DNA from: Chloroflexota bacterium
Lineage (GTDB): Bacteria; Chloroflexota; UBA6077
Length of the DNA: 52,903 nucleotides
Direction: 5' to 3'
Assembly: GCA_027356795.1 (NCBI GenBank)
Contig: DAHVXI010000006.1
Span: 1 to 52,903 of the forward strand
A program made the translations under genes and the position numbers. This document shows positions 38,644-50,468 of this stretch, in pieces; the stretch's first letter is position 1, and each line of letters opens with the position of its first letter. The notes under the pieces are model-generated. The model saw only the letters and a list, made by a program, of their open reading frames with translations, was not told where the DNA came from and ran no database searches.

Positions 38644-39036
38644 ATGCCGAGGTCCAGGGTCTTCATCCTATACAGCCACGGCCTCTTCGCTCGGGGGGTA
38701 CAGAGCCTCCTGGACCGAGAGGCTGAAGTAGAGGTGGTCGGCATGGAGCGGGATGATCGCCTGGCGCTGGAAGAGATCCGGCGGTTGCGGCCGGACGTGA
38801 TCCTGGTGGACTCCAGCACCGCCCCTGAGGCGCACTGCTTGACCGTCTCCGGGATCTTCCAGGAGATCCCCGAGGCCCGGGTGATCACCCTCAGCCTGCG
38901 GGAGAACGGCATCGACGTCTACGACAAGCAGCGGATCATCGCCGCCGGCCCCAGCGACCTGTTGCGGGTTCTCCGCAGGGGATCCGAGGCCGAGTCAAGA
39001 GTCGAAGGGCACGAAAACACAACCACTGGCGAGTAA
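38644..39036 (+). CDS. Stand-alone receiver-like protein lacking the N-terminal acidic pair (pseudo-receiver)
   Basis: 130 aa with REC-like periodicity (RVFILYSHGLFARG.., PDVILVDSS, ARVITLSL). YSH replaces the canonical DD(H) after beta1. Confidence 0.6.
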   Translation: MPRSRVFILYSHGLFARGVQSLLDREAEVEVVGMERDDRLALEEIRRLRPDVILVDSSTAPEAHCLTVSGIFQEIPEARVITLSLRENGIDVYDKQRIIAAGPSDLLRVLRRGSEAESRVEGHENTTTGE

Positions 39037-39123
39037 CAACTGGGGAGCGACGATCGGGGGTGAGGGAATCGGGCGATGCAGCCCCCCCACCCCCGGCCCC
39101 CAGAATGGTGGAGGGGAACGACG

Positions 39124-40386
39124 ATGTTCGGAATGCCGAGGCGACGATCCAAAGGGGTGCTGGTGGTCACCCTGATTTCGGCCTGCGCCGCCCTAATCCT
39201 GCTGGGGCAGATGTTCTCGCAGCCGGCCGGCGTGTATGCTGCGCCCTCGGAGCAGATCAAGCCGACCACTCACCCGGTGGAGGGACGGGAGAACTGCGTC
39301 ATGTGCCATCAGCCCGGCGGAGGGGTCAAGCCCGCGCCGGCAGACCACGCCGGTCGCACCAAGGAGAGCTGCCTGACCTGCCACCAGGCCCAGGGCGCCG
39401 CACCCGCCGCGGCACCCGCCCAGCCGGCAGCCGCACCCGCCCAGCCCGCCGCGGCCCCCGCTCAGCAGCCCAAGCAGGAGCAGCCGCAGGCGCAACCCGC
39501 CGCGCCGGCGAAGCCGACGGTAGCCACCGACCCGGCCCCCGAGGCGGCCAAGGTGGACCTGGCCAGCGCCACGGCTACCTGCCGCACCTGCCACAACAAG
39601 CCGGAGTTCAACACAGTCTCCGAGGTCTCTTCCCGCCCCGACACGGTGAAGCAGCTGGAGTCGGACCGCACCTACGCCCACCGGGAGATCGCCTGCGTCA
39701 CCTGCCACCTGGGCGATCCTCACAAGACCATGGCTCCGGTGACCAAAGAGTCCATTGCCGACGCCTGCGGCAGGTGCCACACGGCGGAGCGACAGGAGCA
39801 CGTCCAGAGCGTCCACGGCCAGAGCCTGGCCTCGGGCGGCAAGGATGCTGCCACCTGCATCGACTGTCACAGCACCCAGAACACCCCCCATTCCATCGCC
39901 AGGGTGCTCAGCCCGGACTCCCCGGCCTACCGGGGCAGCATCGCCTCCACCTGCGCCAAGTGCCACGCCAAGACCGAGGTGATGCAGCAGTACGGCGTCC
40001 CCACCGAGGTGTACAAGACCTACATGACCACCTTCCACGGGAAGGCCAACGTGCTGAGCCCCTACGAGATAACTCAGCACCCCAAGGCCACCTGCGTTAA
40101 CTGCCATGGCTACCACGACATCAGGGCCGGTAGCGATCCGAACTCGCCCGTCGCTCCCGCCAACCTGGCCAACACCTGCGGGGGCTGCCACCCCGGCGCC
40201 GGCGAGCGGTTCGCCAGCGGCTGGCTCGGCCACAAGGAAGCCACACCTCAGCAATTCCCCGTGGTGTACTTCGCCGAGCGGTTCTTCTTCTTCTTTACCA
40301 GCTCGGTCCTGACTTTCGGCTTCATCTTCATGGTAGCCCTGGAACTGGGGTCCTGGATCCTGCGGCGCAAGTCCGGCCAGCACTAG
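39124..40386 (+). CDS. Multihaem c-type cytochrome with 9 CxxCH, N-terminal signal/anchor, Pro/Ala linker and C-terminal TM helix
   Basis: CxxCH motifs: CVMCH, CLTCH, CRTCH, CVTCH, CGRCH, CIDCH, CAKCH, CVNCH, CGGCH. Start at MFGMPRRRSKGVLVVTLISACAALILL. C-terminal hydrophobic helix FFFFFTSSVLTFGFIFMVALELG. Confidence 0.9.
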   Translation: MFGMPRRRSKGVLVVTLISACAALILLGQMFSQPAGVYAAPSEQIKPTTHPVEGRENCVMCHQPGGGVKPAPADHAGRTKESCLTCHQAQGAAPAAAPAQPAAAPAQPAAAPAQQPKQEQPQAQPAAPAKPTVATDPAPEAAKVDLASATATCRTCHNKPEFNTVSEVSSRPDTVKQLESDRTYAHREIACVTCHLGDPHKTMAPVTKESIADACGRCHTAERQEHVQSVHGQSLASGGKDAATCIDCHSTQNTPHSIARVLSPDSPAYRGSIASTCAKCHAKTEVMQQYGVPTEVYKTYMTTFHGKANVLSPYEITQHPKATCVNCHGYHDIRAGSDPNSPVAPANLANTCGGCHPGAGERFASGWLGHKEATPQQFPVVYFAERFFFFFTSSVLTFGFIFMVALELGSWILRRKSGQH

Positions 40387-40396
40387 GAGAGCCCAC

Positions 40397-48649: not shown

Positions 48650-48818
48650 AGGTTCAGAGAGACTCCGAACCCCGGGTCGCGGGGAAAGGTGCAGGGGCCG
48701 GCAGCGCTGCCGGCCCCGTTCTCTTTTGGGAGTCGGGGCGTTCCCGCCCCCGGGCGGGTCGCGGGCGGCGCCTATCGCATACTGGAGGGCTGAATGGTAA
48801 TATTCCGCTCGATTCCCG

Positions 48819-49829
48819 ATGAAGGGTTTGAAGCTGATGGTGGCGAACTGGCTGGAATACGCCGGGCTGGCGATTGTCTACTCGCTGCTGGCCGCGGCTA
48901 TCCTGGAGGCCCTCCTCCACCTCTGGCAGGTGCAGGACCCGCCCCTCGCCCTGGGGTTTCGGCTGTCGATCCTGGTCATCCCACCCTTGGCCCCCATCAT
49001 CTTCTCCCTCCTCGGCCCGGGGTGGGGCTCGGAGCCCTTCCGCCAGCAGACCGCGCTGCTGGAGCTGCGCCGCTGGCTGGGGCCGGAGCCCAGCCTATCC
49101 CACTCGGGTTGGGCCCTGCTGCTGGCCGTCGTCGCCGCCACCACCCTGCTGTCGATCGGCCTGGAGGCGGACGGCTATCTGCGACGGCCGGCGCGCCAGC
49201 CGCACGGGTCCCAACCTTCGCTCCCCCTGCCCGCCGATCTCAAGCTGGCCCTAAAGAGGCTGGCCGACGAAGGAATAGCTCCCTTCCCCATCCTGCTGGT
49301 GGATCGGCGGGACCCGGCCGCCTGCACCGCCGGCCTCCGGCAGCCAACCATCCTGCTGTCCACGGGGCTGGTGGAGATGCTGGACCAGGATGAGCTGGAG
49401 GGGGTGCTGGCCCACGAGATGGCCCACGGGAGGCGGCGGGACAACTGGCTGGGGTGGCTCCTCTTCGGCCTGCGACTGTCTTCTTTCTACAACCCGGTGG
49501 CCCTGCTCGCCTTCCACCAGATCGGCCACGACATGGAGAGGATCTGCGACGCCGAGGCTGGGCGGCTGACCCGCAAGCCGGTCGCTCTGGCTTCGGCCCT
49601 CCTGAAAGTCCACCAGGCCTCTCGGGCATCGACCCAGACCGCGCCGGGTTGGTCGCGACGGGTCGGGAGAAAGGCCGTCGCCCTGGAGAATCGGGCCCGA
49701 AGGGCGCTGGTAGAGGACCGAATAGAGCGGCTCCTTCACCCGGAAGCGGTGGCTCGGGTCAGCTACCCGGGCCTGCGGCTCGGATTGGCCGTGGTGGTCG
49801 CGGTGGGATTGGCGTATCTCGTGGTCTAG
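48819..49829 (+). CDS. Membrane zinc metallopeptidase, M48/M56 type (HtpX/BlaR1-like clan)
   Basis: Three N-terminal TM helices. ..ILLSTGLVEMLDQDELEGVLAHEMAHGRRRD (HExxH). Downstream ERICDAEAG..PVALASALLKV resembles the M48 third-ligand region. Confidence 0.7.
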   Translation: MKGLKLMVANWLEYAGLAIVYSLLAAAILEALLHLWQVQDPPLALGFRLSILVIPPLAPIIFSLLGPGWGSEPFRQQTALLELRRWLGPEPSLSHSGWALLLAVVAATTLLSIGLEADGYLRRPARQPHGSQPSLPLPADLKLALKRLADEGIAPFPILLVDRRDPAACTAGLRQPTILLSTGLVEMLDQDELEGVLAHEMAHGRRRDNWLGWLLFGLRLSSFYNPVALLAFHQIGHDMERICDAEAGRLTRKPVALASALLKVHQASRASTQTAPGWSRRVGRKAVALENRARRALVEDRIERLLHPEAVARVSYPGLRLGLAVVVAVGLAYLVV

Positions 49830-49865
49830 CCGGCCGCCCTAATAGATGACAAGAGGCTCCCAAGA

Positions 49866-50468
49866 ATGCGGGAGATCACGCTGAAAACCAGGGTTCGACA
49901 TCTCGCCCGTGAGCTGCCAGGCATCCTCGCGCCCCTGGTGGTGACGGTGGTCGCGGCGGTGCTGCTGCTGCGTGTGCTGAACCTCGTGCCCGACTATTGG
50001 CAGCGGCTCATAGCCGGCCCCCCGCCTGCCCTGCCCGTCCTCAGCGAGCGGCTGGAGTTCCCCAGCCTCGAGGCAGCGGAGAGGGAGCTGCGGGTGAGGA
50101 TCGCCACCCCCAGCTACTTTCCCTCCACCCTGATCTGGCCGCCCGCCTCCATCCGAGGGCAGCGGGAGCCCGCACGGGTCGCCTCCCTGCTCTTCCTCTC
50201 CTCCGACGGCCAGCAGGCCCTGCAGGTCCGGGAGCTCTTCTCACCCGGGGAGGAGCTCCCCTTCCCCATTCCCGAGCCGATGGAGGTGCTGGAGCGGAGA
50301 GATGTGCCGGTGAACGGGGCTGCCGGCCGGTTGCTAATCGGTCGGGGACAGGGGGGAGGACAGGTGAACCAGCTTCGATGGCACGCCAACGGGGTTCACC
50401 TGGTGGTGACCACCATCTACTCGCCCGAGGAGCTGCTGCGGATCTCCGAGAGCATCCACCCGGAGTGA
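49866..50468 (+). CDS. Hypothetical single-pass membrane protein
   Basis: 200 aa. One N-terminal TM helix (ILAPLVVTVVAAVLLLRVL). Coding-like composition. No family recognised. Confidence 0.45.
   Translation: MREITLKTRVRHLARELPGILAPLVVTVVAAVLLLRVLNLVPDYWQRLIAGPPPALPVLSERLEFPSLEAAERELRVRIATPSYFPSTLIWPPASIRGQREPARVASLLFLSSDGQQALQVRELFSPGEELPFPIPEPMEVLERRDVPVNGAAGRLLIGRGQGGGQVNQLRWHANGVHLVVTTIYSPEELLRISESIHPE

Follow-up and report, generated by a model that had tools for sequence, protein, structure and literature searches.

Two candidate split-gene CbcL-type oxidoreductases, one in an operon with a haem-motif sensor kinase, in a Chloroflexota genome

We analysed a 52,903-nucleotide (nt) stretch of a Chloroflexota bacterium genome (GenBank assembly GCA_027356795.1, contig DAHVXI010000006.1, positions 1 to 52,903; GTDB lineage UBA6077), hereafter the window. 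It holds two pairs of adjacent genes, each encoding a multihaem cytochrome c followed by a dihaem cytochrome b: cytc1 and cytb1 (module 1) and cytc2 and cytb2 (module 2). Module 1 stands among genes for two-component signalling, comprising two histidine kinases (HK1 and HK2), two response regulators (RR1 and RR2) and a receiver-like protein (Table 1). Between 35.8 and 50.5 kilobases the window carries 13 genes on the + strand and one convergent aminotransferase gene on the − strand (44411-45754); the remainder consists of housekeeping and glycoside-hydrolase genes only. An initial annotation of this DNA had described two such modules with nine and eleven haems. Its gene positions and haem counts agree with ours, and its start codons are those of independent gene calls in related contigs and of our homologue alignments. 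We counted haem-attachment motifs (CxxCH) in all stop-to-stop frames of at least 100 amino acids across the window (240 frames, 56,707 amino acids). The total is 21, of which 11 are in cytc2, nine in cytc1 and one in HK2, with none in any other frame; chance is no explanation for this clustering.

The genes of module 1 are tightly packed, with gaps of 10, 2 and −14 nt along cytc1-cytb1-HK2-RR2, and HK2 begins at a GTG codon (41272) just past the cytb1 stop. A gap of 14 nt separates cytc2 from cytb2. This spacing, together with the terminator-like hairpins after RR2 and cytb2, suggests two transcription units: pseudo-receiver-cytc1-cytb1-HK2-RR2 (operon 1) and small protein-cytc2-cytb2 (operon 2). 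Two related contigs, L001 (95% identity) and L003 (about 70% identity for cytc1), preserve the synteny of the whole block, with HK1, RR1, the aminotransferase, the protease and orf200 included. The 130-residue pseudo-receiver has no Pfam match; in partial NCBIfam matches it resembles the receivers of MctR, NarP and NarL (E=1e-9 to 3e-7). In a by-eye alignment to RR1 and RR2, its phospho-acceptor Asp is retained, and Tyr-Ser replaces the Asp-Asp metal-binding pair, a replacement kept in its L001 and L003 orthologues. Coordinates and Pfam matches thus bear out the gene order first proposed, in which a pseudo-receiver precedes module 1, HK2 and a NarL-type regulator follow it, and another kinase-regulator pair lies upstream.

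Table 1 Features of the region around the two cytochrome modules (window positions)
Feature	Position	Strand	Basis
HK1, polytopic membrane (6-7 transmembrane helices) GAF-HisKA_3-HATPase histidine kinase	35841..37853	+	Pfam GAF, HisKA_3, HATPase_c; hydropathy
RR1, NarL/GerE-type response regulator, overlaps HK1	37801..38484	+	Response_reg 1e-31, GerE 2e-20
Conserved region upstream of operon 1	38509..38643	+	Column identity with L001 and L003
Stand-alone pseudo-receiver, 130 amino acids	38644..39036	+	NCBIfam partial matches
cytc1, 9-haem cytochrome c	39124..40386	+	9 CxxCH; Cytochrome_C7 9e-15; Paired_CXXCH_1 2e-11
cytb1, predicted four-helix dihaem cytochrome b, CbcL-type clade of the FdnI/HydC superfamily	40397..41269	+	Ni_hydr_CYTB
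HK2, transmembrane-dCache_1-transmembrane-HAMP-GAF-HisKA_3-HATPase sensor kinase	41272..43650	+	Pfam
RR2, NarL/GerE-type response regulator, 14-nt overlap with HK2	43637..44293	+	Response_reg 2e-27, GerE 9e-22
Terminator-like hairpin and T-run, probable end of operon 1	44315..44344	+	Consensus match only
Small single-transmembrane protein, 141 amino acids, ATG at 45866	45866..46291	+	Recurs beside related cytochrome clusters
cytc2, 11-haem cytochrome c	46434..47861	+	11 CxxCH; Paired_CXXCH_1 5e-16; MtrC/MtrF domain 1e-14
cytb2, paralogous dihaem cytochrome b	47876..48649	+	Ni_hydr_CYTB 40.9 bits
Strong terminator-like hairpin (10 bp, 9 G-C) and T-run, probable end of operon 2	48694..48727	+	Consensus scan
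BlaR1-like M56/M48 membrane metalloprotease (HEMAH)	48819..49829	+	Peptidase_M56 1e-17, M48 3e-11
orf200, single-transmembrane protein travelling with the M56 protease	49866..50468	+	Homologue in L092, L093

The two cytochromes b, which are 42% identical (E=5e-54), score 35.2 (cytb1) and 40.9 bits (cytb2) against Pfam Ni_hydr_CYTB (PF01292; cut-off, 30.1). The AlphaFold2 (AF2) model of cytb1 (predicted local distance difference test score (pLDDT), 84) has one significant Foldseek match in the PDB, Escherichia coli FdnI (1kqf_C; E=1.2e-7; template-modelling score, 0.78). FdnI is also the sole solved sequence relative, at about 20% identity to cytb1 and cytb2 (E=2e-5 and 3e-6, respectively). Seven histidines (79, 121, 135, 231, 246, 251 and 277 in cytb1 numbering) are invariant in an alignment of 30 sequences that includes cytb2. 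Four of these, His79, His121, His231 and His246, align with FdnI His18, His57, His155 and His169, which are the ligands of both b haems in that structure (1KQF). The initial annotation had assigned the b genes to the FdnI/HydC type with a shared His pattern and had named in advance a profile match and conserved axial histidines as the points on which the assignment would turn; both were found. Because TIGR01583 scores of 54.2 and 46.6 bits are about half of that model's cut-off (115.85) and no molybdenum or iron-sulfur partner genes lie near cytb1 or cytb2 in the window, L001 or L003, we consider these genes not to encode formate dehydrogenase subunits. Two of the additional invariant histidines in the 30 relatives, His135 and His251, are near the cytoplasmic face, where most cytochrome c partners contribute one more His from their anchor helix. 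With more potential ligands than two haems require, the family may have a third cofactor, ligate its haems in alternative ways or use some of these residues at a quinone site.

The cytochromes c are 27% identical (E=3e-43), and a two-haem insertion in cytc2 explains their difference in haem number; by these comparisons, the two modules are old paralogues. Both proteins follow a common plan: an N-terminal hydrophobic segment, a dihaem head of roughly 45 amino acids (HP.EGRE.C..CH ... P.P..H ... C..CH), a Pro/Ala-rich tether of 50-65 amino acids, a multihaem body and a C-terminal transmembrane helix. In cytc1 these parts are a signal or anchor (residues 1-38, with a possible AxA site, VYA↓AP, and a possible lipobox, ISAC), the head (about 45-90), the tether (about 92-142; disordered in the AF2 model, with a pLDDT of 32-35), a seven-haem body and the helix (about 386-413). 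Its paralogue cytc2 has a signal (ALA↓EP), the head, the tether, a nine-haem body and a helix with His-x3-Asp (LLLHIVVDL). The shared architecture was recognized in the initial annotation, and its proposal that profile searches would place these proteins in multihaem families holds, with matches to Cytochrome_C7, Paired_CXXCH_1 and the MtrC/MtrF domain. The richness in CxDCHGxH motifs that it reported for both is found in cytc2, which has three, and not in cytc1, which has a single loose one. The homologue alignment of cytc1 has nine conserved non-motif histidines for its nine haems, and no CxxCK. All cytc1 haems are therefore probably bis-His-ligated, in agreement with the all-bis-His c domain reported for CbcL. 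PDB sequence searches with cytc1 and cytc2 returned short haem-motif matches only, and we set the AF2 model of cytc1 aside for fold assignment (pLDDT, 59.6; no significant Foldseek match).

The closest match of the dihaem head is to the repeated dihaem units of MtrA (PDB 6r2q, chain A). Relatives have one, two or four tandem copies of it, and the head thus behaves as a modular unit. We scanned one genome per GTDB species for related cytochromes b and read the best 80 of at least 600 stretches as loci. None of the cytochrome c partners in these 80 loci has a dihaem head, so the Pro/Ala-tethered head appears to be clade-restricted. Two close cytc1 orthologues (P0010 and P0013) carry two heads each. 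Four heads precede a nine-haem body that ends in a coiled coil and a transmembrane helix in P0044 and P0047, and four tandem heads on Pro/Ala linkers are attached to the C terminus of a cytochrome b in P0060.

The cytochromes b are related to the b domain of CbcL, the fused cytochrome c-cytochrome b protein of Geobacter. As a probe we used b-domain fragments of Geobacter sulfurreducens CbcL obtained by optical character recognition (OCR), with garbled text, from a supplementary alignment (PMC9129911). The probe returned six short Desulfuromonadales-type fragments, one named Desulfuromonas thiophila, that are usable for the b domain and not for the c domain. P0198, a Desulfuromonadales fragment retrieved with the OCR fragments and 67% identical to them, is 42% identical to cytb1 over 139 amino acids (E=2e-32) and 34% identical to cytb2 (E=4e-23). 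The motifs EKFD(Y/F)xAVFWG and ATI(A/V)HSDEAxLATG are common to the b subunits and the CbcL type. NCBIfam has no CbcL model that matches the window proteins. Among the homologues of cytc1 are single-chain proteins (P0051, P0052, P0053 and P0055) with a signal, 9-11 haems, a transmembrane helix with an 'LHN' motif and a four-helix b domain. Concatenated cytc1+cytb1 and cytc2+cytb2 align with these fusions from end to end, and the gene junction of the split pairs maps to the cytoplasmic loop after the linking helix. From this collinearity, the C-terminal anchor of the cytochromes c corresponds to the linking, or first membrane, helix of the fused type. The resemblance to Cbc-type quinol oxidoreductases, first put forward as an analogy of logic, thereby gains a basis in homology. 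The suggestion that the C-terminally anchored architecture is new does not stand: CbcA has been described with a C-terminal transmembrane anchor, and the helix has its equivalent in CbcL-type fusions.

In most cytochrome c partners the anchor helix has His-x3-(Asp/Glu) close to its cytoplasmic end. So does that of cytc2, whose transmembrane His shares an alignment column with the fusions' 'LHN' His and with the His found in most split partners from different phyla. In the cytc1 clade Met...Glu stands in place of His-x3-Asp, and the nearest seven-haem clade has neither. The set formed by the linking-helix His and the b-helix histidines (helices I and II, and two in helix IV) is accordingly complete in module 2, and module 1 has Met in the linking helix.

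The family is large and widely spread. A cytochrome b search found at least 1,914 relatives, and the best 80 GTDB loci span more than 15 phyla; the best match of the genome scan is only 54% identical, so close relatives of the window are unsampled there. About 28 of the 80 loci are split, with a 5-19-haem cytochrome that ends in a transmembrane helix directly upstream of a separate b gene, and about 36 have fused c-b forms. Other contexts include NrfD/iron-sulfur complexes, NapC/NirT and ResB (L004), a class I dihaem cytochrome (L007) and a reversed gene order with NarL-type regulators present (L010). Such varied neighbourhoods fit a general quinone-pool hub better than a single pathway. We read the core c+b pair as an ordinary and widespread representative, in split-gene form, of the CbcL/MtoC/MtrH kind; for Chloroflexi, a survey of 2018 that covered fused CbcL homologues reported zero. 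In many phyla a cytochrome with 16-18 haems comes next after a split nine-haem c and b, its gene usually overlapping by 4 nt (L019, L020, L028, L033, L036, L049, L052, L063, L070 and others), an arrangement absent from the window.

Like CbcL, MtoC and MtrH, the modules combine a multihaem, probably all-bis-His c part N-terminal to a HydC/FdnI-type dihaem b part in the order c, linking transmembrane helix, b, with no iron-sulfur, flavin or molybdenum partner, and their exported c domains are within the 3-23 CxxCH range of that group. CbcL itself has a nine-haem c domain, with all haems bis-His, followed by a six-helix HydC/FdnI-type b domain. It differs in being one polypeptide rather than two gene products and in having a sixth C-terminal helix, and the proteins described here add a dihaem head on a Pro/Ala tether and, in module 1, replace the linking-helix His by Met. 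They also come from Chloroflexota and, for module 1, share an operon with a NarL-type two-component system, whereas cbcL is reported to be constitutive. The other Geobacter system considered, CbcBA (GSU0593/0594), resembles the modules in its separate b and c genes, in a multihaem c with a C-terminal transmembrane anchor, which in CbcA is proposed to give a His to the b subunit, and in an operon with its own response-regulator control. However, CbcB is 'thiosulfate reductase-like' and described as unrelated in sequence to the b domain of CbcL, and the b subunits here are of the CbcL type, which argues against CbcBA-type membership. The regulators differ too (the sigma-54-dependent BccR for CbcBA, NarL/GerE here), and no haem-motif kinase has been described for CbcBA.

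FdnI shares the four-helix fold and the four aligned haem ligands with the b subunits. Its partner FdnH is held to it by a single C-terminal transmembrane helix (1KQF), as the cytochromes c appear to be here. The differences are the low identity, the partner, which is a multihaem cytochrome here rather than an iron-sulfur/molybdenum enzyme, and the additional invariant His135, His251 and His277. The tethered head recalls cytochrome c_y, in which a small haem domain on a long flexible linker serves as a membrane-fixed local electron shuttle. This is a resemblance only: the carrier here would be an MtrA-like dihaem unit instead of a class I cytochrome c, it stands in the same polypeptide as its wire, and it occurs in 1-4 tandem copies in relatives.

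The kinase encoded directly after cytb1 has the order dCache_1-HAMP-GAF-HisKA_3-HATPase. Its dCache_1 domain (PF02743; 64.3-68.1 bits, cut-off 45; profile positions 39-239 of 240) lies in an extracytoplasmic loop between two transmembrane helices and includes the CHGCH motif at residues 246-250, in the membrane-proximal half of the domain (about position 205 of 250). The nearest solved structures are the ligand-binding dCache domains of PctA, 3LIB and KinD. A search with the sensor (residues 42-292) found 1,632 cluster representatives with E<=1e-3, of which 398 reach E<=1e-10, and 112 of the best 150 (P0203-P0352) have CxxCH at the same place, with the consensus G-T-C-H-x-C-H ... (D/E)V(L/M)AFAP and a conserved Asp-His 18 residues upstream. 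Asp227-His228, Cys246, His247, Cys249 and His250 of HK2 are conserved at 88-98%. Among 63 family members that we scanned, 62 have dCache_1, 63 HAMP and 45 HisKA_3.

According to a preprint of February 2026, PF11845 (sCache_heme) is a haem-c Cache family, Cache domains being otherwise thought cofactor-free, and is rare or absent in Chloroflexota and Actinomycetota. The HK2 sensor resembles this family (Tll0287, GSU0582 and GSU0935) as an extracytoplasmic Cache sensor with an inserted CxxCH and a histidine kinase among the outputs. It differs in being a double Cache with C-H-x-C-H and an upstream Asp-His, and PF11845 matches neither the HK2 sensor (E<=1) nor any of the 63 members (E<=1e-5). A literature search found no paper on a double-Cache haem sensor, and the tethered dihaem head and the haem-motif dCache kinase do look like the uncharacterized parts of the system. 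The GAF domain of HK2 (window 42600-42930; residues about 445-555) also contains about seven Cys, several beside His (GCSAE...GPCRHRW...EECDHTSEDC...ITCVHLCSKG...LCVANRR), and could provide a second site, for redox chemistry or a cofactor, that faces the cytoplasm.

Similar kinases accompany related modules. HK2-like genes adjoin the pair only in the four closest of the 80 GTDB loci (two from Chloroflexota, two from Actinomycetota). Three of these loci (L012, L013 and L014) have an HK2-like dCache sensor next to the pair; three (L011, L013 and L014) have a kinase core of the HK2 type together with an RR2-like regulator. The CxxCH is kept in the HK2 orthologues of L001 and L003 and is found in the sensors of L011, L012 and L014, not in that of L013; it stands at the HK2 position in the two Actinomycetota kinases (L012 and L014). 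In one protein, P0220 (L091, 5113-7845), a cytochrome b, a transmembrane helix, a dCache domain with CHECH, HAMP, HisKA_3 and HATPase are joined in a single chain. Its b part is 37% identical to cytb1 and 47% identical to cytb2, of which it is the nearest relative found, and the L091 cluster reads c(7 haem)-b-c(9 haem)-[b-HK]-RR-small transmembrane protein-c(6 haem). This natural fusion is strong evidence that kinase and cytochrome b physically cooperate. With the synteny at 95% and about 70% and the kinase genes of the closest loci, it makes the link to two-component signalling the best-supported part of the initial annotation.

We propose, with a probability of roughly 60%, that each c+b pair is a two-subunit, split-gene oxidoreductase of the CbcL/MtoC/MtrH type that connects the quinone pool with multihaem cytochromes. 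The cytochrome b would stack two b haems across the membrane, with His79 and His246 binding the cytoplasmic-side haem and His121 and His231 the outer one. As in FdnI, the menaquinol/menaquinone site probably lies close to the first of these haems. The exported cytochrome c would be held against the cytochrome b by its C-terminal helix, the equivalent of the linking helix of the fusions, and its seven- or nine-haem all-bis-His body would serve as a wire from the outer b haem. On its 50-65-residue disordered tether, the MtrA-like dihaem head may swing or reach out as a carrier that serves partners in the wall zone, the cell being probably monoderm. Electrons would most likely move from the menaquinol pool to extracytoplasmic acceptors.

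Module 1 would be co-transcribed with the pseudo-receiver, HK2 and RR2. The outward dCache of HK2, if it carries a covalent haem c, could report redox poise or a haem ligand such as nitric oxide at the same membrane face, and its signal would tune expression of module 1 through the NarL-type regulator. Module 2 appears to form a separate terminator-bounded unit with the small transmembrane protein. Because it keeps the ancestral transmembrane His, it is probably tuned to a different potential window, and two such windows would mirror the use of ImcH, CbcL and CbcBA by Geobacter. A further and more tentative proposal, which we hold to be possible and on the whole doubtful, is that HK2-type sensors form a second haem-c Cache family (double-Cache, C-H-x-C-H, Terrabacteria-centred). 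Such a sensor would be the built-in redox probe of a respiratory complex, docked on or, in some species, fused to a CbcL-like cytochrome b. Through electron exchange between its haem and the tethered head or the c body, the cell would directly sense how its extracytoplasmic electron chain is poised and set the expression of alternative modules to match.

Several observations weigh against the proposed quinone-pool oxidoreductase or its outward direction. An FdnI-type quinone site on the cytoplasmic side yields proton-motive force from inward, not outward, electron flow, so the topology does not favour the outward direction, and relatives of the CbcL/MtoC/MtrH type are found among Fe(III) reducers as well as among Fe(II) oxidizers. 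Genes for an acceptor, an outer conduit or a terminal reductase are absent from the window, and the 'extracellular' electron transfer that had been suggested is accordingly unsupported. Module 1 is without the transmembrane His that most family members keep. The link to G. sulfurreducens CbcL (GSU0274) passes through OCR fragments and truncated Desulfuromonadales proteins, and the low confidence of the cytc1 model leaves the geometry of the haem chain unmodelled. As for regulation, we found no copy of the conserved upstream repeat of operon 1, CCAAGATAG, in front of module 2 and hence no ground for assuming joint control of the two modules, and no cytochrome genes lie beside three other dCache-CHxCH kinases, all of which are on short contigs.

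The same complex might run in reverse, as a quinone reductase fed by a donor on the extracytoplasmic side (Fe(II), reduced humics, a partner cell or a periplasmic dehydrogenase), with the haem wire leading the electrons inward to reduce menaquinone near the cytoplasm. Of a redox loop this would be the half that generates proton-motive force, as is formate dehydrogenase-N when it reduces quinone, and the b subunits do share the fold and ligand pattern of that inward-working enzyme; nor does any sequence feature tell the family members of Fe(II) oxidizers from those of reducers. We nonetheless judge this direction unlikely, given that CbcL and CbcBA, the only genetically characterized relatives considered, are quinol oxidases and that neither the window nor the syntenic loci encode a donor-oxidizing enzyme. 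Module 1 could alternatively be mainly a sensory antenna, in which cytc1-cytb1 relays the redox state of the quinone pool or of the outside to HK2 within a signalling complex and module 2 is the working oxidoreductase. Three of the five genes of operon 1 are for signalling, the kinase gene begins 2 nt past the b gene, a natural cytochrome b-kinase fusion exists, the family-typical transmembrane His is lost in module 1, and module 2 has its own terminator-bounded unit. Yet the cytochrome b joined to the kinase in L091 is of the cytb2 type and not the cytb1 type, the same seven-haem body is found in many loci that have no kinase gene, and autoregulated operons encoding an enzyme plus its own sensor are common; we regard a mainly sensory module 1 as quite improbable.

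That the C-H-x-C-H of the HK2 dCache is a Cys/His metal site (Zn, Cu or Fe) or a thiol-redox site, instead of an attachment site for haem c, seems to us a minority prospect. The conserved Asp-His together with Cys246, His247, Cys249 and His250 exceeds what a haem site needs in Cys and His, the motif is missing in 38 of the best 150 relatives, and there is no match to the haem-c Cache family PF11845. CxxCH in an exported domain is, however, the canonical haem c signature, and the HK2 copy is the only one in the window beyond the two cytochromes of an organism that clearly matures c-type cytochromes; moreover, a single-Cache family with a similar inserted CxxCH is proven to bind haem c. It is very hard to see the cytochromes c as catalytic subunits of a known multihaem enzyme (of the nitrite, hydroxylamine, sulfite or tetrathionate reductase type) with the cytochrome b as an anchor. 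In its favour are low-scoring, incomplete matches to NrfA, NrfB, HAO and MccSep-type proteins, which cover short runs of haem motifs (E=1e-3 to 4e-5) and are far under the family cut-offs. All motifs are CxxCH, and with nine conserved distal histidines for nine haems, no CxxCK and no obvious open-site haem, such an enzyme is unlikely; Foldseek gave nothing significant and no homologue is so named. On balance we retain the split-gene CbcL-type oxidoreductase.

Few gates are known that connect the quinone pool with electron transfer outside the membrane; CbcL-type proteins belong to them and serve as genomic markers of this ability. The two-gene form is widespread yet missed by surveys of fused genes, including in Chloroflexota, where the 2018 count was zero, and this changes how such surveys should be designed. 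The core pair is of an already known kind; what sets it apart here are the tethered head, the b-kinase fusion and the conserved operon that includes a haem-motif dCache kinase. The latter two offer a concrete, testable case of a respiratory module with a dedicated, putative extracytoplasmic haem sensor. Should haem binding hold for the dCache C-H-x-C-H family, the one family reported in 2026 would no longer be the only Cache domains with a cofactor. From the tethered dihaem head one may imagine how electrons could cross the wall zone in a cell that has no outer membrane.

The region upstream of operon 1 (38509-38643) has a mean column identity of 78% with L001 and L003, though the proteins of L003 are only about 70% identical. 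It contains a direct repeat, CC(A)AAGATAG, at 38528 and 38550 (22 bp apart) upstream of the pseudo-receiver, and possible −35 (TTAGTA) and −10 (CATAAT) elements; a scan with the sigma-70 consensus found no promoter in the intergenic regions of interest. The region could be a regulator site or a leader structure, with putative promoter and operator roles. It also includes a GNRA-type hairpin, TAGTCCGAAAGGACTA, whose 3' arm can alternatively pair with the downstream GTCCTTTCG. An Rfam scan of the region gave nothing above noise.

A near-perfect palindrome of 27-28 bp, GTAGAGACGCGACA(T/G)GTCGC(G/A)TCTCT, occurs exactly twice in the window (38481-38508 and 46303-46330; chance, 0.02), each copy just past a stop codon and upstream of one cytochrome module. 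We rejected it as a shared operator: the first copy is a clean insertion missing from the 95%-identical L001, and both copies are missing from L003. The palindrome looks like a small mobile or repetitive extragenic palindromic (REP)-like element rather than an operator.

The small single-transmembrane protein upstream of cytc2, which has no Pfam or NCBIfam match, has orthologues in L001 (16723-17148) and L003 (16904-17359) and homologues in L013 (171-485; phmmer, 1.7e-13) and L091 (8685-9002; by eye), and thus stands beside related cytochrome b/c clusters in at least five contigs. The M56 protease and orf200, for which profile searches gave no family match, follow cytb2 in three syntenic contigs (the window, L001 and L003). 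Homologues of the M56-orf200 pair (L092, 22-947; by eye) are directly upstream of a dCache-CHxCH kinase and regulator, with an orf200 homologue between the M56 gene and the kinase in both L092 and L093; this kinase is one of the three mentioned above that have no adjacent cytochrome genes. This ties the two genes to the same neighbourhood and suggests a proteolytic signalling branch linked to the system. Just upstream of HK1, a gene on the − strand (32864-35233) encodes a secreted Vgb_lyase/NHL beta-propeller of 789 amino acids with a long C-terminal extension. The gene is kept upstream of HK1 in L001, and an NHL/SGL-type gene also follows the cytochromes of L091.

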